Assembly (NCBI GenBank): GCA_030637745.1
Contig: DAOWFX010000043.1
Span: forward strand, 3,424-67,423
Direction of reading: 5' to 3'
Source of the DNA: Clostridia bacterium
GTDB lineage: Bacteria > Bacillota > Clostridia > Christensenellales > UMGS416
Length of the DNA stretch: 64,000 nt
Part shown: one piece after another, positions 34,460 to 58,611 of the stretch
Layout: each line of letters starts with the position of its first letter
Numbering within the stretch: the first letter of the stretch is position 1
Program-made: the position numbers and the translations under genes
The notes under the pieces: model-generated
Seen by the model: the letters and a program-made list of their open reading frames with translations, nothing else
Database searches by the model: none
What the model was told of the DNA's origin: nothing

Positions 34460-36370
<1,911 letters not shown>

Positions 36371-36382
36371 GAGAATTAATAT

Positions 36383-38863
36383 ATGGAATTCAATTTTGAC
36401 AATCAAACAATAAAGCCCATCAGCATCGAAGATGAAATGAAGAAATCGTTCATCTCCTATGCAATGGCAACCATTGTATCTAGAGCATTACCTGATGTTC
36501 GCGATGGATTAAAGCCTGTTCATAGAAGAATACTCTATTCAATGCATGAACTGGGTATTACACCTGACAAACCACACAAGAAGTCTGTTCGTATCGTTGG
36601 TGATGTATTGGGTAAATTCCACCCACACGGTGATACTGCAGTGTATGATGCTATGGTACGTATGGCACAAGACTTTTCAACACGCGCATTATTAGTCGAT
36701 GGACACGGTAACTTTGGGTCTGTTGATGGCGATGGTGCAGCTGCTATGAGATATACAGAAGCAAGGATGTCAAAGATTGCACTTGAAATGCTAAGGGATA
36801 TTGACAAAGATACTGTAAACTTTGTACCCAACTTCGATGAAAGCCAGATGCAACCTTCTGTACTTCCTGCACGATACCCAAACTTACTGGTCAATGGATC
36901 AAGTGGTATTGCAGTAGGTATGGCAACTAATATTCCTCCGCACAACTTAGGTGAAGTCGTGAATGCAACGATTGCCATGATTGATGATCCTGATATTTCT
37001 GTGATTGACTTGATGCAGCACATCAAAGGCCCAGACTTTCCAACTGGTGCTCTTATTATGGGCTCAGGAGGTATCATAGAAGCCTATGAAACAGGCAGAG
37101 GCAAAGTCATTATGCGTGGAGAATCCGAAATTGAGGAAATGGCAAATGGCAAATCGCGAATTATCATTACATCTCTTCCATACCAAGTCAATAAATCACG
37201 CTTGATTGAAAAGATGGCAGACCTTGTCAATCAGCGTCGCATCGAAGGAATTACAGACCTTCGCGATGAATCCGATAGAACAGGTATGCGCATTGTGGTT
37301 GAATTAAAACGAGATGCAAATTCTAATATCATACTCAATCAACTATATAAGCATACACAACTTCAAGACACATTTGGAATCAATATGCTTGCTTTAGTTG
37401 ATGATGAACCCAAGGTGCTTGGTTTAAAACAAGTATTGGGATACTATATCACACATCAACGTGAAGTCGTCACAAGACGCACAAAGTTTGAATTTGACAG
37501 AGCTCAAAAACGTGCACATATCGTAGAAGGTTTATTGAAGGCGTTGGATTATATCGACGAAGTCATCAAACTGATTCGTGCAAGTAAAAATGATGCTGAA
37601 GCAAAATCAGGCTTGATGGAAAAGTTTGAACTTTCTGAAGTACAAGCACAAGCCATCTTAGATATGCGATTAAGAAGACTTACAGGACTTGAAAAAACGC
37701 GTCTGTTAGATGAATATACAAAGCTCAAAGAGACCATGGCATATCTCAGTTCAATCCTTGAAGATGATGAGAAATTAATGCAGGTAATCAAAGATGAACT
37801 TACCGGTGTATCAGAAAAATATGCCGATGATCGCAGAACAGAAATGAGGGTGGACTACAGCGATATAGATATGGAGGATTTGATTCAAGAAGAAGAAATG
37901 GTTGTCACCATTACACACTTTGGTTATATCAAACGCTTAACATCTGCAACATATCGCCAACAGAACAGAGGTGGAGTAGGCATCAAGGGCTTATCTGCAA
38001 GAGATGAAGACTTTGTAGAGAAAATCTTGGTCACATCGACACATGATTGGTTGTATTTCTTTACAGATATGGGACGTGTGCATCGATTAAAGTGTTGGCA
38101 AATACCAGAAGCCAGCAGAACAGCACGTGGAACTGCGATAGTAAACTTATTGCAACTAGATGGTGGAGAGAAGATCACAACAGTCATTCCCTTTGAAAAA
38201 GACGTGGACATTGAGGGCAAGTTCCTCGTCCTTGCAACTCGAAAAGGCGTGATTAAGAAAACTCCATTGGAAGAATACCAAAACTTACGCAATGTTGGTC
38301 TTCGTGCTATTAACCTAGTAGATGATGATAAACTGATTTCTGCTGTGCTTACTGATGGTTCGTATGATATTTATATGGGAACACGAAACGGTATGGCGAT
38401 TCGTTTCAGCGAAAATGACGTACGTCCAATGCACAGAGTAGTAACAGGTGTTCGTGGTATCAAACTCCGTGAAGGAGATGTCGCTGTAGATATGGGACTG
38501 GTAGATGAACGCATTAAACTATTGGCAATATCAGAACAAGGCTATGGTAAACGAACGGATTTTGTAGAGTATCGCCAACAAAACAGAGGTGGCTTTGGTG
38601 TCATTACTATGAATATCAACCAAAAAACCGGGAAATTGGTAGACCTCAAGCCTTGTACAGACGAAGAAGATGTAATGCTAATATCATCTGATGGTACCAT
38701 CATCCGAATGAGCATTGATTCGATTTCTAAGATGGGAAGATCCACACAGGGAGTCAAGGTTATGAAGCTCCGTGAGAATGATACAGTTGTAGCTGCAGAA
38801 GTGGTTAGTCCAGATGATGTAGAGGCAATTGAAACAGATGAAATAATAACAGAAACAGAATAA
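36383..38863 (+). CDS. gyrA: DNA gyrase subunit A
   Basis: 826 aa. Active-site [10 protein letters not shown]. The GyrA-box-like [11 protein letters not shown] at the start of the C-terminal beta-pinwheel argues for gyrase rather than topoisomerase IV. Confidence 0.95.
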
Positions 38864-39329: not shown

Positions 39330-42062
39330 TTGAATACATTAACAAAAACAAAGGAAGACAGTACAAAATTCTTACGCATGTTGTTTGATTCCATAGACAG
39401 TGCAATCATTGTTTATGATGTAATCAATCAAGGATTAACAGGTGATGATTATCTTATCAAAGATATGAATGAAACATCTATGTTAATTGAACAACACAAA
39501 TTGGAGGAAGTCAAAGGGAAATCAATTAAAAGCCTTCGTAATAATGTTGAAGAATTTGGCATCATAGAGGTATTTAAAAAGGTTTGGGACACAGGAGAGC
39601 CGGCACACTTTCCTGCAAAAGCATATAAAGAGGGCAATATAGAAGTGTGGTTTGAAAATCGCATATTCAAGCTCCCTACAGGAGAGATTGTTGCACTATA
39701 TGATGATATTACACAACATATACACAAGGAAAATAAGTTAAATAGAAAGCTTATGATGGAAAGTATCATAAAGGATATTGCTATGTTGGGGCTTGAAAAA
39801 ATATCCTTAAACGAGTTTAAAGACAGAGGAATTGAAATACTCGGAACAAGGCTTGAAGCATCTCGAGTATATGTTTTTGAAAATGATTCCAAAATAAACA
39901 CCACCAGCATGACAAATGAATGGATAAAAAAGAGCAAACATTCAAGCTTGTATAAATTCCAAAACGTGAATAATAAACAACACAATTGGATAATCAATCA
40001 AATGAAAAATAATCAGATTATTTCTTATAACAAGATATCTGATATTCCCGACAAATACACACAAAGAATACTACAAAGATTTGAAATAAATGCCTTTACA
40101 TTACTTCCGATATTTATTTCCGGAGAATACTATGGTTTTCTAGGATATGATAAGTGTTTATTTGAGTTTGATCATGAAAATGTGGAAACAGATATTTTGA
40201 TGACGATATCCAATATCTTTTCAGAAGTTATTACACGAAAAATTGTTGAAAGATCATTAACAGAAAGAGACTTTATGATGCGGTCACAATTTGGCTATAG
40301 TGAAATTGGCATTATCATAAAAGACAAACACGAAAACACATTTCACGTCAATAAAAAAGCAACAGAAATCATGCGGTGCACTGAAGAAGAATATGTAAAA
40401 ATAGATTTCTATAAAGCAACACATCCTGATGATTTAGAAGAAAGCGTCGTATATTATGATGCATTAAAATCAGGAGAGATAGATAATTATCAGCACCAAA
40501 AAAGGATGATTACAGAAGACGGCAGTATTATTTATGTTATTCACACAGGATCTTGTTATAAAAACGAGAAAGGTGAAGTGAGTCTTATATTTTTAACCAT
40601 GCAAGACATTACTGACCAGAAGAAGATGGAAAGAGAGCTTTTTGAAGAAAAAGAATATCTCAGGATTACATTGCAATCTATCGGTGATGGGGTTATCGCA
40701 ATTGATAATAATACAAACATCACAATGATTAATACCATAGCAGAAGAAATGACAGGTTACAGATACGATGAAGCTATAGGAAAGAAACTTAATGAAGTGT
40801 TGGAAATCTATGATAGTGTCTCCAGAGAGAATATTATTAAACCATTAGATAGAGCAATAGAGTCTGAGGAAATCGGTGAATTAACAGGTGAAGTAATCCT
40901 TAAAAGACGAGATGCAACAGAAAGAATTATTTCTGATATTATTACACCAATAAAGAATGTTGACGGAGATATCGCAGGATATGTACTAGTATTTAGAGAT
41001 ATTACAGAAGAGAAGAGACGAAATGAAAAAATGATTCATATCAGTCAGCATGATGGATTAACAGGATTATATAACAGAAGATTTTTTGAAGAAGCATTAA
41101 CACTTTTTGATCAACAAAACAGATATCCTATTTCATTAATTATGGGTGATTTGAATGGACTCAAGATTACTAATGATGTATTTGGTCATGAAGTAGGGGA
41201 TGAATTGTTGATAAAAACTGCTTCAGTTTTAAGAAAACATGCAAGACCTCAAGATATACTTGCGCGTTGGGGAGGCGATGAATATGTTATGCTTATGCCG
41301 GATACTGATCTTGAAACTGTGCGAAAAATCAATCGTGCAATATACAAAACATGTGGTAAGTATGAGAATACTACAAGTAGCGAAGTTACTCCATTAAGCA
41401 TTTCCTTAGGATACGCAACACATGAGGATGATAGCAAAAACATTATGCAGCTTATTAAAGAATCAGAAGATTTCATGTACAAAGGAAAACTACTAGAAAG
41501 CAGAAGTACGCATAGCAATATTATTTCTTCAATCAAGAAAACATTGTTTGAAAAAAGCCATGAGACAGAGGCGCATTCAGAGCGACTAAAAACTATATGC
41601 AATATGATGGGGAAAGCCATTGATCTTAGCGAACAACAACTCAATGATTTAGAACTTTTTGCGATGTTGCATGATATTGGTAAGATTACTATTGAAGACA
41701 ACATTCTGACAAAAGAAGGAGAATTGACTCCTGAGGAGTGGCAAGTGATTGAAAGACATCCAGCTACAGGTTATCGTATTGTCCAATCTGCTCCGGAACT
41801 TTCGCACATTGCAGATTACATTCTCGCACATCATGAAAGATGGGATGGTAAAGGATATCCACATAGAATAAAAGGCGAGGCTATTCCCGTACTTGCAAGA
41901 ATACTTTCAATTATTGATTCATATGATGCAATGATATCTGATAGACCCTACAGAAAAGCAATGAAAAAAGAAATAGCAATCGAAGAAATAAAAAACTGTG
42001 CAGGAAAGCAATATGATCCACGCTTAGTTCATATCTTTTTGGAGATTGCAGATTCAATTTAA
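39330..42062 (+). CDS. multidomain c-di-GMP signalling protein: PAS/GAF sensory modules, GGDEF (GGDEY variant) and HD-GYP
   Basis: 910 aa. TTG start. Several PAS/GAF-like blocks. GGDEF domain (HDGLTGLYNRRFF ... RPQDILARWGGDEYVMLMP). HD-GYP domain (LHDIGKI ... HHERWDGKGYP ... IDSYDAMISDRPYRKA). Confidence 0.9.
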   Translation: MNTLTKTKEDSTKFLRMLFDSIDSAIIVYDVINQGLTGDDYLIKDMNETSMLIEQHKLEEVKGKSIKSLRNNVEEFGIIEVFKKVWDTGEPAHFPAKAYKEGNIEVWFENRIFKLPTGEIVALYDDITQHIHKENKLNRKLMMESIIKDIAMLGLEKISLNEFKDRGIEILGTRLEASRVYVFENDSKINTTSMTNEWIKKSKHSSLYKFQNVNNKQHNWIINQMKNNQIISYNKISDIPDKYTQRILQRFEINAFTLLPIFISGEYYGFLGYDKCLFEFDHENVETDILMTISNIFSEVITRKIVERSLTERDFMMRSQFGYSEIGIIIKDKHENTFHVNKKATEIMRCTEEEYVKIDFYKATHPDDLEESVVYYDALKSGEIDNYQHQKRMITEDGSIIYVIHTGSCYKNEKGEVSLIFLTMQDITDQKKMERELFEEKEYLRITLQSIGDGVIAIDNNTNITMINTIAEEMTGYRYDEAIGKKLNEVLEIYDSVSRENIIKPLDRAIESEEIGELTGEVILKRRDATERIISDIITPIKNVDGDIAGYVLVFRDITEEKRRNEKMIHISQHDGLTGLYNRRFFEEALTLFDQQNRYPISLIMGDLNGLKITNDVFGHEVGDELLIKTASVLRKHARPQDILARWGGDEYVMLMPDTDLETVRKINRAIYKTCGKYENTTSSEVTPLSISLGYATHEDDSKNIMQLIKESEDFMYKGKLLESRSTHSNIISSIKKTLFEKSHETEAHSERLKTICNMMGKAIDLSEQQLNDLELFAMLHDIGKITIEDNILTKEGELTPEEWQVIERHPATGYRIVQSAPELSHIADYILAHHERWDGKGYPHRIKGEAIPVLARILSIIDSYDAMISDRPYRKAMKKEIAIEEIKNCAGKQYDPRLVHIFLEIADSI

Positions 42063-46495: not shown

Positions 46496-47338
46496 ATGAA
46501 AAGAAATGAAAACAAAAAAAAGAAAAGCTCAAAACTATCAAGGATACTTGGGATTTTTGCAATATTATTGATTGTAGCTGCAATGTCATTGCTTGGATGG
46601 AGGTTATGGCAACTTGGTTTACAGACTACAACAGAAAAGGATGTAAGAAGTTTATATAATCCTGATGCAACCAACACACCCACTCCAGATGCAACTGCAA
46701 CAGCTTATTTGAGACCGGGAGAGCCCACACCAGCACCCACTGCGACACCACAACCATTTGTTATTCCAAAGTTTCAGCAACTCGTTGAAACCAACCCCGA
46801 CACAGTAGGCTGGCTTCGTATTCCCAATACTAATATTGACCATGTAGTAATGCAAGGAGATGACAATTATTATTACCTTGATCATACCTTCTTTGAAGAT
46901 AAGGCAACTGCAGGATCTATGACATTGGACTTTAGGGTTGATATAGCAGACCTTAGTGGCAATGTGCTTTTATATGGTCATCATATGCAGGTAGGCAGTA
47001 TGCTTAATTCACTTGAAAAATATAGAAATGAAAAGTTTTATATCAATAATCCAATCCTATATTTCGACACCATATACGAGGAAGCGCAATGGGAAGTTTT
47101 TTCTGCATACGTTCAAAGCAATCGCTTTAACTTCTTCAAGACTGACTTTGAAACCAGAGATTATTATTTTAAGTATATTAAAGCATTGCAAAGAGAAAGC
47201 ATCTACGAAACAGGTATTGAACTTTCACCTGATGACATCATCCTTACACTATCAACCTGTGTTTACGATTTTGAAGATGCACGGATGGTGGTACATGCAC
47301 GGCGCAAGAACCTAATACCTGATGAAAACTACGACTGA
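46496..47338 (+). CDS. srtB: class B sortase
   Basis: 280 aa. N-terminal TM anchor. Pro/Thr-rich linker. DTVGWLRIPNTNIDHVVMQGDDNYYYLDH, LYGHHM, catalytic TLSTCVY and a late Arg. No SD; TATAAT lies 6 nt upstream of the ATG. Confidence 0.85.
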   Translation: MKRNENKKKKSSKLSRILGIFAILLIVAAMSLLGWRLWQLGLQTTTEKDVRSLYNPDATNTPTPDATATAYLRPGEPTPAPTATPQPFVIPKFQQLVETNPDTVGWLRIPNTNIDHVVMQGDDNYYYLDHTFFEDKATAGSMTLDFRVDIADLSGNVLLYGHHMQVGSMLNSLEKYRNEKFYINNPILYFDTIYEEAQWEVFSAYVQSNRFNFFKTDFETRDYYFKYIKALQRESIYETGIELSPDDIILTLSTCVYDFEDARMVVHARRKNLIPDENYD

Positions 47339-47830
47339 TCAGAGCACTCAAAATATTACTATTTCACCGTGAGATTATACACAAATATAGTCACATATGT
47401 ATTGATATGTTCCTAAATTTATTTAATAATCTCACAATGTCTAGTAGTTATTTTGAGCACTCTGATGGCTTTCATGAAATATCATATAGTAGATTTATTT
47501 GCATGGTTCTTGTATGATCATGCTTAATGAATAAGTATATTAACCTCGCACCACCTATAAATATTTTGAGCACTCTGATGGTTTTTGTGAAATATCATAC
47601 AGTATCATTATGTACACAGTTCTTGTAGTAATACACCCAATGAAATTAACTAATAACCTCACAATGTCTAGTAGTTATTTTGAGCACTTTGATGGCTTCT
47701 GAAAAATATCATACAATAGCTTTATTTACATAGTTCTTGTATTAACATGCTTAACGAATCTATTTATTAATCTCACACCGCATATTAACGATTTAAAGCA
47801 ATTTGATGATAATCAATGTATAATCGTTGT
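47336..47830. repeat. degenerate tandem array of ~114-bp noncoding units, preceded by an inverted copy of the conserved core
   Basis: TTTTGAGCACT(C/T)TGATGG recurs at 47451, 47564 and 47678 (periods 113 and 114 nt), with a decayed copy at 47792. Each is preceded by (A/T)TAA(T/C)CTCAC.... Conserved blocks GAAATATCATA and GTTCTTGTA lie inside each unit. An inverted copy of the core occupies 47338-47379, starting at the srtB stop codon. Confidence 0.8.
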
Positions 47831-47976
47831 TTGAATCACACTGACTACAGATTTAAGATTCATAGTTTAAGTTTTTACTCCTTCATACTTCTCAACTTCA
47901 ATAATATCTTGATATAGTACTTCACAAATATGTTCAAATCATGTTACAATAACATATCCCAATAATAGGAGAAACC

Positions 47977-49233
47977 ATGGCAATGGAAACCATCATCATT
48001 TTAGTATTACTTGTGATTAATGTTGCATTAATCATTTTTCTGATACTAAAAAAAGGTACTTCCGGCGATGATGTTAAAAAAGAAAACAATCTATTACGTC
48101 GCATGATATCTGAGGAATTTCAACAAAGCAGGCAAGAGATATCAAAAGTCAATCGTGAAGATAGACAAGAACAATACAAGAATTTTGAGAGTCTTTCAAA
48201 AAGCATATTTGAACGTTGGACAGAACGCAACCTCATCGACTCAAAACGGGATGAAGCGGGAGCGCAACGCATATCCAATGTTGCAAAGGATAATGAAATT
48301 CGCATGACACGTCTTGAAGAGCAAGTTTCAAAGAGATTGGATGAAATGCGCAAGACTGTAGATGAGCAGCTTAACGAAACATTGCAGAAGCGTGTTTCAG
48401 CATCATTTGAGCAGGTTACAAAGCAATTAACACAGCTATATTCCTCGCTATCAAAAGTGGACACCGATATGGCATCTTTGCAAAAGGTATTCTCTGGTGT
48501 TAAAACACGAGGTGTTTGGGGCGAAATAATGTTGATTGCCTTACTTGAGCAGATTCTGACACCACAACAGTTTGTAAAGAATGCAAAAATCAATCCCAAT
48601 AAGCAAAACTATGTAGAAGTGGCTGTTCGTATGCCGGGTAATGATGGAGAAAACGATGTATTGTTACCAATTGATTCAAAGTTTCCGGTTGAAGATTATC
48701 AGCGTTTAATTGACGCAAGAGAAAACGGAGACAAGGTTGCAGAGCTTGAAGCAGATCGTGCTTTGACTGCACGCATTAAGTCACAAGCAAAAGACATCAG
48801 AGATAAATATATTGATCCACCATACTCGACTGATTTTGCAATTATGTATCTTCCTGCAGAAGGACTTTTTGCAGAAGCATTACGTGTACCAGGGCTTACT
48901 GAAACACTGCAAGTACAGTACAAGGTCACTGTATGTGGTCCCACAACGCTTGCAGCGTTATTGAATAGTTTGAAGATGGGATTTACAACACTAGCCATAC
49001 AGAAAAAATCCGGAGAAGTGTGGCGACTATTGGCAGCTGTCAAAAAAACCATCAATATTCACCAAAGCAATCTACAAAAAGCATATCGAAATATGCAGAC
49101 ATCAGTAAATGCACTTGACGATGCTCAAAAAAATATAGGAACCATTAACAATCGTCTACGTTCAGTTGAGGAGATTCCAACCGCTGAGGTAGACGAATTG
49201 ATACCTGGAATAAAGGATGAAAGCGGTACTTAA
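47977..49233 (+). CDS. rmuC: DNA recombination protein RmuC
   Basis: 418 aa. N-terminal TM helix, long coiled coil, RmuC nuclease-like C-terminal domain (YVEVAVRMPG...LLPIDSKFPVEDY). AGGAG SD. Confidence 0.9.
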   Translation: MAMETIIILVLLVINVALIIFLILKKGTSGDDVKKENNLLRRMISEEFQQSRQEISKVNREDRQEQYKNFESLSKSIFERWTERNLIDSKRDEAGAQRISNVAKDNEIRMTRLEEQVSKRLDEMRKTVDEQLNETLQKRVSASFEQVTKQLTQLYSSLSKVDTDMASLQKVFSGVKTRGVWGEIMLIALLEQILTPQQFVKNAKINPNKQNYVEVAVRMPGNDGENDVLLPIDSKFPVEDYQRLIDARENGDKVAELEADRALTARIKSQAKDIRDKYIDPPYSTDFAIMYLPAEGLFAEALRVPGLTETLQVQYKVTVCGPTTLAALLNSLKMGFTTLAIQKKSGEVWRLLAAVKKTINIHQSNLQKAYRNMQTSVNALDDAQKNIGTINNRLRSVEEIPTAEVDELIPGIKDESGT

Positions 49234-52200
49234 TGAATAATGCACTGTTTGCCCCATTAGCAAACTCGGGGCAATTTCAGCGGATTATGGACTTCATACG
49301 AGGGGGGCAGTCGCCCTGCTCGGCATTTGGTGTGTCTGGATCTTATAAGCACTATCTATACTCCACGATTGTACAATCGGTAAAAAACCCTATTCTAATC
49401 ATTACTCCCAATCATATAATAGCAACCCAAACCGCGTCAGACATTGAAGGGATGACAGGAATTGCATGTCATGTGTTCTCCCAACGCTCTGTTGAGATAC
49501 ATCATGTACAAGCTGCAAGCAAAGAAGTGGAGCACAGACGTTCTGCATTGTTGGGCGACATGATACTAAAAAAAGCAAAAGTGATCATCGCTCCGATTGA
49601 CTCATTGATCACACCTCTTTGCCCTGTTAAAGACTTCAAAAAAGCATTCATTAATATCAAGATAGGCGATGAAATCAGTCCATTGGATTTGAGCAAAAAG
49701 CTTACATGGTCTTTATACCACAGAGAAAGTCGTGTAGAACAAGTAGGCCAATTTGCAGTACGTGGGGATATCGTGGACATATTCCCTGTTGGATCAGAAC
49801 ATCCAATACGGATTGAGTTCTTTGGGGATGATATCGAATCCATAAGAAATTTCGATGAGACAACACAACGTTCATTAACCAAAATCCAAGAGATTATAAT
49901 TTATCCTGCGATGGAAATGCCTTTGGATATTACTGCAATGGAGCGTGGTGCCAACATTATCAAAAGTTCTTCTAAGAATGCAGAAAAACGTGCAAAAAGC
50001 ATAGAAGAGTCATCGGAAGAAACGCACAAATCAGATATTGTAGCACATAATGCAAGAAATATAGATAAGCTGGTGCAAAACGGATACTTTGAAGGCATGG
50101 AAAACCACATGCGTTTGTTTTATCCCAATGCATGTACAATCGATCAATATCTAGATGATCCCATTCTTATATTTGATGAAATTACAGAAATAAAAAACAG
50201 AAGTGATGCCCTCAACAAAGAATACCATGCAGTCAATAGCAGCTTGTTCAAAACAGGACACGCACTTCAGGAACTTGAAGACTTACTCTATACCTTTGAA
50301 CAGTTGATGGACGAATTCAGTCAATCATTTATATTTACAACCACAGCATTTACTACAGACAAACTTTTAGATTATTCGCGTACGCTTACCTTTAGTGGAT
50401 CCGATGCAATGGTTTACAGAGGGCAGTTTGATTTGCTTTCCAACGATATTAAAACATGGCGTAGAGAAAAGTATAAGGTAGCTATCTTAGTCGGTACACA
50501 AGATAGGATTGATCGTGTAAAAGAAACGTTGGAGCAATATTATATTACAACAACACCACTAAAAAAGGATCGTGCAATTTCAAGTGGTGAGGTAGCTTTG
50601 GTGCCGCTATATTGTGCAAAGGGTTTTATTAGTGCTGTTGATAAATTCGTAGTATTGACAGAGAACGAACTATTTGGAAGAACTAAAAGACCTAAGAAGA
50701 AACTGCATAGAAAAAAAGCGGGAGAAGCGATATTAAACGATATCAAAAAGGGAGATTATGTGGTTCATGAATCCCATGGTATCGGAAAGTATGATGGCAT
50801 TACAAGGCTTGAAACATTAGGAACCAAGAGAGATTATCTAAAGCTTTTATACCTCGGCGGAGATGTGCTTTATATACCAACTGAGCAAATGGACAGGGTT
50901 CAAAAGTATATCGGTGCAGACCAAGGCAAAGCAAAGCTTACACGACTTGGAGGCAAGGCGTGGGAAAATGCGAGGAAGAAGGCAAAGGGTGCTGTTGCCG
51001 ATATGACAGAAGATTTGATTGCACTATATGCACAAAGAAATGCTATCAAGGGCTTTCAATTTTCCATAGATGGAGAGTGGCAAAGACAGTTTGAAGAAGC
51101 TTTTGAGTACCAAGAAACACCGGACCAGATAACAAGTATCGCAGAAATCAAAGAAGACATGCAAAGCCATGAGGTGATGGATCGTCTCTTATGTGGCGAT
51201 GTAGGATATGGCAAGACAGAGGTTGCGCTCCGTGCAGCATTCAAGGCCATTGCAGACAAAAAACAGGTTGCAATACTATGCCCCACGACTATATTGTGCC
51301 ATCAACACTATATGACAATTTGTGAAAGGTTTAAAGATTTTCCTATTGAAAAAAGGGAACTTTCACGATTTGTAACTACCGCGCATCAAAACGATACTAT
51401 AGATAAATTAAAAGTAGGCAAAGTGGATATCGTAGTTGGTACACACAGGCTACTTTCAAAGGATATCAATTTCAAAGATTTAGGCCTTCTAGTGATTGAT
51501 GAAGAGCAACGCTTTGGTGTTTCACACAAAGAGAAAATCAAAAAGCTACGTGTTGGAGTGGATGTACTAACAATGACTGCAACACCCATACCACGCACAC
51601 TGCATATGTCTCTATCCGGAATTCGAGATATCTCGATGATTGAAACACCGCCTGAGGAACGCTTTCCGGTACAAACTTTTGTAACAGAATATGACGAAGA
51701 GATGGTTAAGGGCGCATTGGAGCGCGAAATATCTCGTGGTGGGCAAGTATTCTTTGTGTACAATCGTGTACAGTCAATTGACATGATGAAGCGAAAGATT
51801 AATGAATTATTACCCAACATCAAAATCGCTATTGCGCATGGACAGATGCCTAGCAATCAGCTTGAGAATGTGATGCTAGATTTCCTTGAAAAGAAGTATG
51901 ATGTGTTGCTTTCAACAACCATTATTGAAAATGGATTGGACATCCCAAATGTTAATACTCTTATCGTGTATGACACCGATAAGTTTGGGCTTTCTCAGCT
52001 ATATCAATTACGAGGTAGAGTAGGTCGAAGCAACAGACTTTCCTATGCATACTTAACATGGCGTCCTAGTAATATGTTGACTGAGACCGCACGAAAACGA
52101 TTGGAAGCAATAGCTCAGTTTACCGAGTTTGGGAGCGGCTTGAAGATTGCGATGCGCGACCTTGAAATACGAGGTGCAGGTTCTCTGTTGGGTGCAAAGC

Positions 52201-52739
52201 AACATGGTCATATGGCTGCTATTGGATACGGATTGTATTGCAAATTGATTGAAGATGCAGTAGGAAAGATCAAAGGCGAAGAGCCACAAGAAGCCGTCAA
52301 CGAAGTGACGCTAAATGTTCAGATGGATGCATTTATTCCTGATGAATATATAATAGATATTCAAGATAGACTGGATATGTATAGAGCGATATCATACATA
52401 ACATCACTTAAAGATAAAAGCGATATTATATCAGATATGACAGATAGGTTTGGTGAAGTACCGCAAAGTGTTACAAATTTGATGGATGTTGCATTCCTAA
52501 AATACAAAAGCTCGAAAGTACAAATCAAAATGATCAGTCAAAGAGCGGATAAATTTGTACTTCGCTTTGAAGATGAAATAAATTATGACATGTTGCAATT
52601 GGTTCAATATATCAACAAGAACCATGCACGCTTTTCAGGACAAGATAATCCACAGATATTCCTTCCGATATCAGATCAAGGAATTGCGCATTTAATAGAC
52701 TTTGTACTAGGACTTGTAAAGCTTAGATTGACTCATTAA
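49233..52739 (+). CDS. mfd: transcription-repair coupling factor
   Basis: 1168 aa. UvrB-homology N-terminus, CarD/TRCF RNAP-interacting domain (GDYVVHESHGIGKY), SF2 helicase motifs (GDVGYGKTEVALRAAF, DEEQRFG), TRCF C-terminal domain. Start overlaps the rmuC stop. Confidence 0.95.
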   Translation: MNNALFAPLANSGQFQRIMDFIRGGQSPCSAFGVSGSYKHYLYSTIVQSVKNPILIITPNHIIATQTASDIEGMTGIACHVFSQRSVEIHHVQAASKEVEHRRSALLGDMILKKAKVIIAPIDSLITPLCPVKDFKKAFINIKIGDEISPLDLSKKLTWSLYHRESRVEQVGQFAVRGDIVDIFPVGSEHPIRIEFFGDDIESIRNFDETTQRSLTKIQEIIIYPAMEMPLDITAMERGANIIKSSSKNAEKRAKSIEESSEETHKSDIVAHNARNIDKLVQNGYFEGMENHMRLFYPNACTIDQYLDDPILIFDEITEIKNRSDALNKEYHAVNSSLFKTGHALQELEDLLYTFEQLMDEFSQSFIFTTTAFTTDKLLDYSRTLTFSGSDAMVYRGQFDLLSNDIKTWRREKYKVAILVGTQDRIDRVKETLEQYYITTTPLKKDRAISSGEVALVPLYCAKGFISAVDKFVVLTENELFGRTKRPKKKLHRKKAGEAILNDIKKGDYVVHESHGIGKYDGITRLETLGTKRDYLKLLYLGGDVLYIPTEQMDRVQKYIGADQGKAKLTRLGGKAWENARKKAKGAVADMTEDLIALYAQRNAIKGFQFSIDGEWQRQFEEAFEYQETPDQITSIAEIKEDMQSHEVMDRLLCGDVGYGKTEVALRAAFKAIADKKQVAILCPTTILCHQHYMTICERFKDFPIEKRELSRFVTTAHQNDTIDKLKVGKVDIVVGTHRLLSKDINFKDLGLLVIDEEQRFGVSHKEKIKKLRVGVDVLTMTATPIPRTLHMSLSGIRDISMIETPPEERFPVQTFVTEYDEEMVKGALEREISRGGQVFFVYNRVQSIDMMKRKINELLPNIKIAIAHGQMPSNQLENVMLDFLEKKYDVLLSTTIIENGLDIPNVNTLIVYDTDKFGLSQLYQLRGRVGRSNRLSYAYLTWRPSNMLTETARKRLEAIAQFTEFGSGLKIAMRDLEIRGAGSLLGAKQHGHMAAIGYGLYCKLIEDAVGKIKGEEPQEAVNEVTLNVQMDAFIPDEYIIDIQDRLDMYRAISYITSLKDKSDIISDMTDRFGEVPQSVTNLMDVAFLKYKSSKVQIKMISQRADKFVLRFEDEINYDMLQLVQYINKNHARFSGQDNPQIFLPISDQGIAHLIDFVLGLVKLRLTH

Positions 52740-55232: not shown

Positions 55233-56861
55233 ATGAAGAAAACTGTATTATTAGGATTATTATGTTTCATCATTTTGATGACTCAAGTAGGGTGTGCCAA
55301 AGCACCAACCTATGAACACTCTGATGAAATCATGAACGTCCAAGAAGAAGCAACTGCAAGTATCGCACCAGATGCTACAGCACAGCCGGACAGTCCTGTT
55401 GCAACAAAGGAAATAAGGCCACCATCCAAAACTGTTGATGTATATTTTACAGGAGTATCTCATGATGGAAAGCCGTGGAACTGGATGGCTATCGATGAGA
55501 TGCTCGTGGCGCTGAACGAAAAACTATTAGAGGATCTCAACATCAATGTTAACTTCAATTGGCTTTCAACTGAAGAGTATTCTGATGAGATATCGATGCT
55601 TATTGCATCCGATGATGCGCCGGATATGATACAGGTAGATGAAGGTAGTGCGGATGTAAGGCTATGGTCTAGCGAGGGTTACATTGCAAACATCTATGAA
55701 CTTGCACATAGCCATATGCCCAAAACCATGGCAACTATAGGCAATTTCCCAGACTTTATTAGCACACAAGCAGCAGATGAAGCGTTGTATGTATTACCCG
55801 GGATTCAATACAACGCTGTGCGGTATACTGTCAGTGTTACAAAAGAAATAAGTGATGAATATCAAAAAGAAATTAATACATTAGAAGACTATGAAAACTT
55901 CTTAGAATGGGTAAAGCAAACAAAACCAGAAATGACACCAGGAGTTATTGAAACGAATGCAGTGATTGATATAGCTATTAAAGGTGCAGGATACAAAGAT
56001 GATGTATCAACCTTTTATACACACATAGAAAACAATAAACTTGTCAGTAAGCCCATAGAGGAAATCCCTGAGTTTCACAAAGCATATGAGATGCTACAAA
56101 GATGGGAAGAAGAACAATATTTTAGTATATTCTCTGGATTTACTTGGTGGATGGCAATGCGAGAAGGAAGATTGGCCTCAGCTCTTTTTCCATATGAATT
56201 CGTGCGAGAAAGTGCAATTTATGCACGAGATAGTTATAGATTCATCAATCATGTATTATACGAGGATACAGAGATGATACGAAGCAAAAACACCACAGGC
56301 TTTGCATTTTGTGAAAATGGTGATGCAATGATTGAAGCGATGCAATTTCTAGAATGGACACATGAATCTCAGGATAATTATGATTTGATTCAATATGGAG
56401 TGATAGACAAACAGTATAATCTTATTGATAACATGCTAAATTTTCCACCTGAGATATATACACATAATACTTTTGATTGGGAAGGCAGTATGTGCTTTAA
56501 AGATATTACACTAGATCGCCAAATCATCAACGAAGCCGTGGATGATTATTATGCATTTATACAATCGGTATCCATAGATAACACGATAACCAGACAGCAA
56601 TATTATGATAATGCAGGTATTGATATCATTGTAGTCGATAAAAAGCTACGAAGCGATACCACATTCTTAGATGATATCAATAGTAAAATCGAATTGAATC
56701 TCGAGGGTCGAGAAAAAGAGTATTCAGGATTGGTAGCAGTGTGGGAATTAAATGATTTTTCGTTGACAACAGATGAAGTGATTAAGAAGTTATCCGATGC
56801 AGGGGGTACGAAACTGGCAGCACTACTCAATGAGAAAAATGAAATGATCTACTATGATTAA
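55233..56861 (+). CDS. LplA-like solute-binding lipoprotein, tandem paralog 1
   Basis: 542 aa. GAGGGAG SD. Lipobox MTQVGC. Same architecture as 2887..4461 and 6512..7957. Roughly four-fifths identical (by eye) to the next gene. Confidence 0.7.
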   Translation: MKKTVLLGLLCFIILMTQVGCAKAPTYEHSDEIMNVQEEATASIAPDATAQPDSPVATKEIRPPSKTVDVYFTGVSHDGKPWNWMAIDEMLVALNEKLLEDLNINVNFNWLSTEEYSDEISMLIASDDAPDMIQVDEGSADVRLWSSEGYIANIYELAHSHMPKTMATIGNFPDFISTQAADEALYVLPGIQYNAVRYTVSVTKEISDEYQKEINTLEDYENFLEWVKQTKPEMTPGVIETNAVIDIAIKGAGYKDDVSTFYTHIENNKLVSKPIEEIPEFHKAYEMLQRWEEEQYFSIFSGFTWWMAMREGRLASALFPYEFVRESAIYARDSYRFINHVLYEDTEMIRSKNTTGFAFCENGDAMIEAMQFLEWTHESQDNYDLIQYGVIDKQYNLIDNMLNFPPEIYTHNTFDWEGSMCFKDITLDRQIINEAVDDYYAFIQSVSIDNTITRQQYYDNAGIDIIVVDKKLRSDTTFLDDINSKIELNLEGREKEYSGLVAVWELNDFSLTTDEVIKKLSDAGGTKLAALLNEKNEMIYYD

Positions 56862-56976
56862 CAATAATATAAAGACTGCTTTTGACGGGTAGAGCATTCC
56901 ATTATTATGTGATTTTATACAATGTCTTAAGGATAGGTAAAGATTAAATCAACTTATTTTTAAAAAGGTGGACATG

Positions 56977-58611
56977 ATGAAAAGAAGACTATTGATTTTA
57001 ATAATCTGCATAGTCACACTCTTGGCTATAGGATGCACAAAAGCGCCAACCTATGAACACTCTGATGAAATCATGAACATTGAAGTAGAAGCAACAGACA
57101 ACATTGCACCGGACACTACAGTACAACAGGATAGTCCTGTTGCTACAAAGGAAATAAGGCCACCTTCAAAGACAGTAGATGTATTCTTTGTAAGTTCCTC
57201 TCATGATGGAAAGCCAGGGCATTGGATGGGTATCGATGAGATGCTTGAGGCGCTCAATGAGAAACTATTAGAGGATCTTAACATCAATGTAAACTTTAAT
57301 TGGTTTTCAACTGAAGAGTATTCAGATGAGATATCATTGCTATTTGCATCCGATGATGCACCAGATATGATACAGGTAGACGAAGGTAGTGCGGATGTAA
57401 GGATATGGTCTAGTGAGGGTCACATTGCAAATATTTATGAATTTGCACATAGTTATATGCCCAAAACCATGGCAACCATCGGAAATTTCCCAGACTATAT
57501 TAGCACACAAGCAGCAGATGAAGCGTTGTATGTATTATCCGGGATTCAATACAACCCTGTGCGGTATATTGTTAGCGTAACAAAAGAAATTAGTGATGAA
57601 TATCAAAAAGATATCAATACGCTAGATGACTATGATGATTTTTTGGAGTGGGTAGCAAAGACAAATCCAGATTTAACACCGGGAATTATTGATTTGAATA
57701 CAGTGATTGATGCATCCATAAAGGGTGCAGGATACAAAGATGATGTATCCACTTTTTATAAGCGCATAGAAAACAATCATCTTATAAGCAAGCCCATTGA
57801 GGAGATCCCTGAGTTTCACAAAGCATATGAAATGCTTCAAAGATGGGATGAAGAAGAACATTATTTTAGTATATTTGATGAAGTTGGATATGCTTGGTAT
57901 AATGCAATGCGAGAAGGGAGATTGGCTTCAACTATAGCTCCATATGAATACATGCGAGCTTCTGCAGTTTTTGCTCGTGATAATTATAGATTTGTCAATC
58001 ATGTGTTATATAAGGATACAGGGATGATACGAAGTAAAAACACAACAGGCTTTGCTTTCTGTGAAAATGGTGATGCAATGATTGAAGCCATGCAATTTCT
58101 TGAATGGACACATGAATCTCAGGATAATTATGACCTGATTCAATATGGAGTACAAGACAGACATTATGCACTCATTGATAATATGTTAAATTATTCAATT
58201 GAGATTTATTTACATAATATTTATGATTGGGAAGGCAGCATGTGTTTTAAAGACATTACACTAGATCGCCAAATCATCAATGATGCAGTGGATGACTACT
58301 ATGCATATATTCAATCGGTATCCATAGATAATACCATAACAAGAGAACAATATTATGAAAATGCAGGTATTGATATCAATGCTGTCAATAAGAAACTTCA
58401 AGAGGACACCTCGTTTTTAGATGATATCAACAATAATATAAATATGAAACTAGAGGTACGGGGAAAAGAATATTCAGGACTCGTAACAATGTGGGAACTC
58501 GATGATTTTTCGTTGACAGTAGATGAAGTCGCACAAAAGCTTTCAGAGGCGAGTGGCGAAGAGCTTGAAACCTTAATCAATGAGCGCAATGAAATGATGT
58601 ACTACGAATAA
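56977..58611 (+). CDS. LplA-like solute-binding lipoprotein, tandem paralog 2
   Basis: Start set at MKRRLL (ATG 5 nt after AAGGTGG). Lipobox LLAIGC. Long identical runs with paralog 1 (KAPTYEHSDEIMN, DSPVATKEIRPPSKTVDV, FCENGDAMIEAMQFLEWTHESQDNYDLIQYG). Confidence 0.7.
   Translation: MKRRLLILIICIVTLLAIGCTKAPTYEHSDEIMNIEVEATDNIAPDTTVQQDSPVATKEIRPPSKTVDVFFVSSSHDGKPGHWMGIDEMLEALNEKLLEDLNINVNFNWFSTEEYSDEISLLFASDDAPDMIQVDEGSADVRIWSSEGHIANIYEFAHSYMPKTMATIGNFPDYISTQAADEALYVLSGIQYNPVRYIVSVTKEISDEYQKDINTLDDYDDFLEWVAKTNPDLTPGIIDLNTVIDASIKGAGYKDDVSTFYKRIENNHLISKPIEEIPEFHKAYEMLQRWDEEEHYFSIFDEVGYAWYNAMREGRLASTIAPYEYMRASAVFARDNYRFVNHVLYKDTGMIRSKNTTGFAFCENGDAMIEAMQFLEWTHESQDNYDLIQYGVQDRHYALIDNMLNYSIEIYLHNIYDWEGSMCFKDITLDRQIINDAVDDYYAYIQSVSIDNTITREQYYENAGIDINAVNKKLQEDTSFLDDINNNINMKLEVRGKEYSGLVTMWELDDFSLTVDEVAQKLSEASGEELETLINERNEMMYYE

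Follow-up and report, generated by a model that had tools for sequence, protein, structure and literature searches.

Local expansion of a conserved long-hairpin element behind srtB best explains a tandem array in an uncultured Clostridia lineage

This study concerns a non-coding array of degenerate repeats that lies between srtB and rmuC in a 64,000-nucleotide stretch of DNA from an uncultured Clostridia bacterium (assembly GCA_030637745.1, contig DAOWFX010000043.1), referred to throughout, at its full length, as the window. The upstream gene, srtB (46496-47338, plus strand), encodes a class B sortase of 280 amino acids (aa) that is recognised by the Pfam Sortase model and by NCBIfam TIGR03064 (sortase_srtB; 171.6 bits against a cutoff of 153.75), and ends in a TGA stop codon at 47336-47338. 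The downstream gene, rmuC (47977-49233, plus strand; 418 aa; Pfam RmuC, 7.7e-64), is followed by mfd (49233-52739; Pfam TRCF and UvrB_inter domains). The 638 nucleotides (nt) between srtB and rmuC contain a long hairpin that begins at the srtB stop codon, here named H1, and a run of tandem units, the last of them decayed. The original prediction, made from the letters of the window, had found no credible open reading frame (ORF) in this gap and none conserved between the units; this was confirmed, as all ORFs in the gap are at most 36 aa long and unit-specific, with none common to the units.

The array was reported by Tandem Repeats Finder, as its only one, at 47416-47777, with a period of 113/114 nt, 3.0-3.2 copies, 70-72% matches and a score of 347-396. 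A repeat search gave direct-copy spacings of 113 and 114 nt across three units, and the core 20-mer TATTTTGAGCACTYTGATGG has three exact plus-strand occurrences, at 47449, 47562 and 47676, where 0.01 would be expected in shuffled sequence. These results bear out the tandem units and the periods that had been predicted, although the predicted unit starts lie 2 nt to the right of the 20-mer positions. All units are read on the plus strand. Unit 1 (47427-47540) comprises the rmuC-proximal arm of H1, with its core at 47449-47468, plus a spacer; unit 2 (47541-47653; core 47562-47581) forms no hairpin alone, and unit 3 (47654-47767; core 47676-47695) follows it. The fourth unit (47768-47808, decayed core 47789-47808), also anticipated in a decayed state, is recognisable in its arm part alone: a hidden Markov model (HMM) of the unit run with nhmmer recovers it at 47758-47808 (E 6e-4), and its identity to the other units is 43-54%, with unit 2 the nearest. 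Global identity is 83% between units 1 and 3, 74% between units 2 and 3 and 69% between units 1 and 2; the first estimate, by eye, had been 70-80%. Since unit 1 is closer to unit 3 than to unit 2 (an A-B-A-B pattern), the last event was the duplication of a 227-bp block of two units. The three conserved islands ascribed to each unit are present, but their clustering is statistically weak in column permutations (longest run 13, p ~0.08; run-length sum of squares, p ~0.017). The stretches between the cores measure 93-94 nt. As had been recognised at the outset, the array is not a CRISPR (clustered regularly interspaced short palindromic repeats) array, which would have repeats of 24-48 nt with unique spacers, whereas here one unit follows another every 113/114 nt, with “spacers” that are mutually homologous at 69-83%.

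An inverted copy of the core precedes the direct copies. It starts on the srtB stop codon as predicted (47338-47379, plus strand, from inverted repeats and alignment), forms the outer and middle part of the srtB-proximal arm of H1, and over 47338-47357 is 83-90% complementary to each of the three direct cores. H1 as a whole (47338-47466) is a nearly continuous hairpin of 129 nt whose first base is the last base of the srtB TGA. It consists of a srtB-proximal arm (47338-47392), an apex stem-loop (47393-47410; ACATAT/GTATTG/ATATGT), which can be written as the pattern GTCACGTATGT-N2-5-GATACGCTCC, and a rmuC-proximal arm (47411-47466); its G+C content is 30%, and GGCUUUCAUG lies directly 3' of it. 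Folded as plus-strand RNA, H1 reaches -43.5 kcal/mol (z -7.6 against shuffles) in a single long hairpin whose terminal loop has 6 nt. The long imperfect hairpin of the original prediction therefore exists, but the loop of ~47 nt assigned to it is itself mostly paired. H1 does not have the short G+C-rich stem and U-tract of an intrinsic terminator, and terminator-like sites are absent from 47200-48100, in keeping with the earlier statement that the array has no terminator-like stems. Several further relationships were compared with shuffled sequence. An extension of the inverted copy into the srtB coding region (nhmmer E 0.023; shared GGTTCTTG) gave local alignments no better than shuffles (z 0.8-1.7) and was rejected; the inter-core spacer found no support as a decayed copy of the other arm and apex (z -0.5 to 0.6) or as a copy of the rmuC promoter region (z <= 1.8).

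The srtB-rmuC gap was compared with that of relatives, the nearest SrtB and RmuC homologues found being 72-78% identical. The gap is highly variable. It measures 18 nt in L144, with no room for a hairpin, and 182 nt in L137, where a canonical plus-strand terminator stands in the hairpin's place. One unit is present in L127 (gap of 197 nt) and in L143 (215 nt), one unit plus a remnant, the start of a second, in L138 (471 nt), and two units each in L131 and L142, where the gap exceeds 1.1 kb through an inserted DUF2441 gene and small inserted ORFs, respectively. In the relatives the gap is an insertion hot spot (L131 3841-4983, L138 3841-4311, L142 3341-4270) with extra genes, namely DUF2441 and ORFs of 53 aa and 203 aa. 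Two families of G+C-rich hairpin repeats, exemplified by AAAGAGGCTTTGGCAGAGCCAAAACTCTTT and GGGGAGCTGGC...GCTGAGGGGTT, are present there in several copies as well and are unrelated to the srtB hairpin. BLAST detected no similarity between the gap of the window and those of the relatives. The unit HMM gave weak core matches at the same offset behind srtB in L131 (twice, 111 nt apart) and L138, and reading of the sequences identified homologous hairpins directly 3' of the srtB stop codon in L127, L143, L131, L138 and L142. Together with H1 these make six hairpins, which align at a mean column identity of 73% and place the element at the same position in four lineages of this uncultured Clostridia group.

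Tandem architecture is also shared. L131 contains a 66-nt repeat, 97% identical, at a spacing of 112 nt, and a second repeat family at a spacing of 227 nt; in L142 and L138 the repeat spacing is 112-114 nt. The second unit of L142 is a hairpin by itself (-36.0 kcal/mol, z -3.7, minus strand), and in the second unit of L131 the inner arm has been overwritten by a copy from unit 1 and folding is lost. In the second units of L131 and L142, conservation between the two is 98-100% at the apex and over the outer 26 nt of the arm, and the intervening 27 nt have been replaced. The core-to-core distance in L131, at 93 nt, is nearly equal to that in the window, with no detectable similarity between the inter-core spacers of the two (z ~0). 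On the simplest reading of these sequences, the ancestral locus would have carried tandem long hairpins with a period of ~112 nt, of which one unit is left in some lineages; in the lineage of the window it would have expanded to four units, the later of which lost their own hairpin potential.

The original prediction had proposed a search for the core in the rest of the genome and in relatives. No other copy was found in the ~144 kb searched: a covariance model of the hairpin finds the srtB locus alone in the 64-kb window, with filters off, and in ~80 kb of the relatives. Phage, plasmid and viral-contig collections yielded nothing save one 34-nt chance match. The degenerate core pattern TATTTTGAGYRCTYTGAT gave 120 single chance matches on genome contigs from unrelated phyla, none of them paired, the pattern being too degenerate, and a metagenome scan with the SrtB alignment returned three distant sortases alone, at 26-28% identity.

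Covariation within the six-hairpin alignment was assessed with an RNAalifold consensus structure and pair counts, controlled by sliding the pairing partners and by shuffling. The consensus has 37 pairs on the plus strand or 41 on the minus strand, 14-15 of them with changes on both sides. Around 90% of the cells are paired (90.3% on the 37-pair set), against 32-49% when the pairing is slid, and none of 500 shuffles reaches the observed value. Using the 4-fold degenerate sites of srtB and rmuC as a neutral yardstick, hairpin identity exceeds 4-fold identity in each comparison of close relatives: 88% against 62% for L131 and L142, 90% against 65% for L142 and L138, and 95% against 83% for L131 and L138. 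In other words, the hairpin diverges ~3-fold more slowly than the 4-fold sites, which argues that it is under purifying selection in the relatives. Between the window and the relatives the 4-fold sites are saturated, at 28-44% identity, against 47-61% for the hairpin. The arms could stay complementary through template switching inside a palindrome, yet this would not slow divergence between species, and we therefore take the slower divergence as a sign of purifying selection.

These measurements bear directly on a neutral origin, in which an old palindromic insertion 3' of srtB, resembling a miniature inverted-repeat transposable element (MITE), was duplicated by slippage, has no function and owes its complementarity to template switching. 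H1 does have the shape of such an element: it is small, imperfectly palindromic and without an ORF, and its terminal inverted repeats are long. The hairpin is missing from L137 and L144, the gap is an insertion hot spot with other repeat families in the relatives, the fourth unit is decayed, units 2 and 3 are unstructured and the island clustering is weak. Against this stand the slow divergence between close relatives and the fact that the hairpin occupies the same position in four lineages and can still be aligned where neutral sites are saturated. Moreover, no target-site duplication surrounds H1 (its flanks, ACGACTG and GGCTTTC, have no direct repeat in common), and no second copy came to light within 64 kb of this genome and ~80 kb of relatives or in the phage, plasmid and viral-contig collections. 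We consider a functionless relic unlikely. A decayed and amplified MITE-like insertion was nonetheless the nearest of the options originally offered, with one change: the hairpin is no recent insertion but an orthologous element under purifying selection in the relatives.

The best explanation for the array is that it represents a lineage-specific local expansion, now partly decayed, of an older, selectively maintained long-hairpin element at the 3' end of srtB. The extra copies could have arisen through unequal recombination or slippage between units. As to function, we tentatively favour, at a confidence a little short of calling it probable, a model in which a conserved module at the srtB 3' end, the hairpin, acts at the RNA level, either as a hairpin of the 3' untranslated region (UTR) or as a cis-antisense RNA, with the 114-nt units as paralogous by-products. 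In this model the element would act as RNA and be transcribed as the srtB 3' UTR, where the hairpin could protect or process the end of the transcript, for example as an RNase III substrate, and could set the level of read-through into rmuC-mfd. The additional units would be paralogous remnants, serving at most as alternative pairing partners for the single srtB-proximal arm. Placement in the 3' UTR is supported from two sides. As no terminator-like site lies between the stop codon and the hairpin, a plus-strand hairpin would have to be co-transcribed with srtB, and in L142 both hairpins lie upstream of a canonical plus-strand terminator and hence within the srtB 3' UTR.

In all six hairpins the minus-strand RNA is the more stable, by 5-15 kcal/mol: -58.7 (minus) against -43.3 (plus) kcal/mol in the window, -56.8 against -46.4 in L131, -58.0 against -45.2 in L142, -53.6 against -40.6 in L138, -37.3 against -32.0 in L143 and -26.0 against -17.1 in L127. 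The second hairpin of L142 behaves likewise, and the consensus energy is -31.8 for the minus strand against -17.0 for the plus strand. One common set of pairs gives 22 G·U cells for the minus strand and six for the plus strand, and three wobble positions are common across lineages. In these folding models the asymmetry favours a functional minus-strand RNA. Given that the minus-strand RNA is the better-paired one in every copy and has conserved G·U positions, a convergent cis-antisense RNA with an overlap at the srtB 3' end would be as plausible as a 3'-UTR hairpin.

A more elaborate version of this model would make the locus an undescribed class of tandem long-hairpin non-coding RNAs, transcribed convergently to srtB, in which the conserved 20-nt arm end and the apex (GUCACGUAUGU-type) are read by a specific factor and a copy number of 1-4 tunes srtB and/or rmuC-mfd. 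We regard this as quite improbable. A small ORF or type I toxin was also considered and rejected: a 24-aa ORF is found in L131, L138 and L142, where it varies through non-synonymous changes, and is missing in L143 and the window. On the minus strand no ORF is shared.

A number of observations weigh against a conserved RNA module. The species of the window is represented by one cold-seep sample, and the independent lineages are just four, as L131, L138 and L142 are mutually close. Compensatory changes in an inverted repeat can also come about without selection, by intra-palindrome template switching. The strand asymmetry comes from the same four lineages and in part from inherited positions, and is not statistically strong; no convincing minus-strand promoter was found, and no U-tract lies behind the hairpin on either strand. 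Finally, the outer 20-26 nt of the arm are kept near-perfectly even in units unable to form a hairpin, and “AGCACT” occurs in the same orientation in both arms, which suggests a sequence-specific reader rather than structure alone.

This last point leads to a different explanation, a DNA-level array of protein-binding sites or promoters, in which the 20-mer TATTTTGAGCACTYTGATGG, repeated every ~113 bp, and the second island, AAATATCATAYART, are sites that act on srtB or rmuC-mfd, and the hairpin is simply two sites for a DNA-binding protein or RNA polymerase in inverted orientation. Beyond the “AGCACT” motif and an outer arm whose conservation is the highest within every paralogous unit of two lineages, with or without hairpin potential, such an array would account for a period held at 112-114 nt in lineages whose inter-core sequence cannot be aligned, and for islands separated by short variable spacers of fixed length. 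By eye, each unit contains YTGATG-17-TAYART on the plus strand and TTCAYR-17-CAAAAT on the minus strand, and a promoter scan scored unit 3 (plus) and unit 2 (minus) at 9/12. However, the 11 promoter-like sites are no enrichment over shuffles, which have 6.7 +/- 2.5, and on reading of the sequences L131, L142 and L143 do not keep the promoter-like geometry. The 14-15 compensatory pairs, spread along the whole of the 60-nt arms, would be unexpected for paired binding sites. The core and apex matched no known operator motif in a comparison by eye rather than against a database; Fur, cre, LexA/Cheo, CodY, parS, the DnaA box, a CiaR-like repeat and attC R'/R'' gave no convincing match. Overall, a binding array strikes us as doubtful.

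The sRNA (small RNA) reading of the original prediction fares worst. Here, each ~114-nt unit would be its own transcription unit, as in the LhrC1-5 and Qrr loci, with the shared 20-nt core as a seed that, on the plus strand, is complementary to the stop-codon region of the srtB mRNA. The length of the units and their tandem layout do resemble sibling sRNA loci, the conserved core of 18-20 nt is 83-90% complementary to 47338-47357, and there are weak promoter-like hexamers within the islands. However, single units analysed on both strands and in two phases do not fold above shuffled sequence (z 0.2-1.5), promoters are not enriched and no terminator-like sites are present. No Rfam family matches the array, and at E <= 10 the region 46800-48300 gives chance matches to eukaryotic microRNA-precursor models alone, which reflect a long hairpin. 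The LhrC covariance model has no match at E <= 10 in that region and none at gathering score in the whole window, and the Rfam Qrr model has no match. The fourth unit, moreover, is decayed, and relatives have one or two units, the conserved entity there being the whole hairpin and not a unit-sized gene. With units 2 and 3 unable to fold alone and no terminators, conserved ORF or Rfam match, separate sRNA genes are very unlikely. The locus has instead the appearance of a structured non-coding element, hitherto undescribed, that was duplicated locally, and for follow-up the conserved hairpin holds more promise than the array.

Besides the hairpin, the rmuC promoter is the only part of the gap conserved across the relatives. 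It lies outside the array (47921-47950, plus strand; TTCACA-18-TACAAT with an upstream TG; 10/12 in the scan), and the same motif (TTCACA/TTCAAA, 17-18 nt, TG-n-TACAAT) precedes rmuC in L126, L127, L137, L138 and L143. Between the decayed fourth unit and this promoter, at 47852-47871, there is a direct repeat TTTAAG-N8-TTTAAG that has the look of a response-regulator site with unusual spacing. RmuC has been described genetically as limiting inversions at short inverted repeats. Its gene adjoins a 129-nt inverted repeat in the window, but L126 and L128 have rmuC without the hairpin, and in L131 and L142 other genes lie in between. The N-terminal extension of the sortase, ~90 residues that include a Pro/Thr-rich linker, is conserved in the relatives; there is no obvious sortase substrate gene adjoining srtB, and the upstream neighbours vary by species, with a YhaM-like exoribonuclease in the window and DUF5685 or DUF2992 elsewhere.

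Further away in the window, gyrB-gyrA (34460-38863) precedes the gene for a PAS-GGDEF protein of 910 aa that also has a c-di-GMP phosphodiesterase domain of HD type (39330-42062), and two adjacent paralogous ORFs of ~545 aa (55233-56861 and 56968-58611) have weak similarity to solute-binding proteins and no NCBIfam match. The region may lie near the replication origin, as the rmuC locus of a relative is 9.5-18.7 kb from the start of a 3.07-Mb contig; no dnaA was found among the ORFs scanned. GyrB is 77-80% identical to that of metagenome-assembled genomes (MAGs) of Eubacteriales and Christensenellales, which places the organism among uncultured Clostridia; closer relatives reach 89-91% GyrB identity (P0167-P0172). 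An identical array occurs in an ENA scaffold, an NCBI MAG and a Logan contig, all from one sample, SAMN18200495 / SRR13892605, which is the source of every other contig with this array (L001-L005). One further contig, with RmuC at 97% identity, begins only 43 nt ahead of rmuC. The sample, RS_7, was taken at the Site-F cold seep, South China Sea (PMC9357000).

Should the hairpin prove functional, it would add to the known structured non-coding elements a conserved one from a lineage known from metagenomes alone; we know of no curated RNA families for this Clostridia group. It would also illustrate the growth of one regulatory hairpin into a tandem array, with one, two or four units across sister lineages at a constant period. 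If it is not, the locus is an ordinary decaying intergenic duplication. In either case there is a caution here, in that a “cluster of sRNA genes” called from sequence alone may be the duplicated half of a palindrome.

Several known systems offer points of comparison. Tandem sRNA loci such as Listeria LhrC1-4 and Vibrio Qrr1-5 likewise have ~110-nt units arranged head to tail in one intergenic region, but the window units are without an Rfam match, within-unit stem-loops, terminators or a conserved C-rich loop motif, and the copies are 69-83% identical with one decayed. Enterobacterial repetitive intergenic consensus (ERIC) sequences, or intergenic repeat units, are imperfect palindromes of ~127 bp in transcribed intergenic regions of Enterobacteria and Vibrio, thought to influence the stability of flanking mRNA in an orientation-dependent manner. 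H1 resembles them as an imperfect palindrome of ~130 nt (129 nt, starting at the stop codon with no preceding terminator) that would give a long RNA hairpin just 3' of an ORF in a transcribed region, with no ORF of its own. However, ERICs form dispersed, multi-copy families, whereas here one locus was found in the 144 kb searched; the organism belongs to another phylum, no sequence relationship is apparent, and the window element is orthologous across species and tandemly duplicated. BOX elements of pneumococci are built as boxA-(boxB)n-boxC with a variable number of tandem internal subunits, boxB being 45 nt long, and the Correia elements of Neisseria have promoter-like boxes within their inverted repeats and form mRNA hairpins that RNase III cleaves. 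Like the element described here, which has a TANAAT-like box in both arms, comparable to the promoter-like boxes of Correia elements, both are intergenic, modular in build and able to form hairpins; they differ in being dispersed in tens to hundreds of copies with short subunits, in contrast to a 112-114-nt subunit at a single conserved locus. GadY-type RNAs are cis-antisense RNAs encoded opposite a 3' UTR. GadY is neither a long hairpin nor tandemly repeated, and the minus-strand transcript of the window is a candidate only, but here too an intergenic element overlaps the 3' end of the upstream gene and, in folding models, reads better on the opposite strand; by analogy, its antisense RNA could form a perfect duplex with the srtB 3' UTR and guide processing that is specific to double strands. 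By such analogies the element, which we would assign to none of these families, is closest in shape and position to ERIC, Correia or BOX-type hairpins or to a GadY-type antisense RNA.

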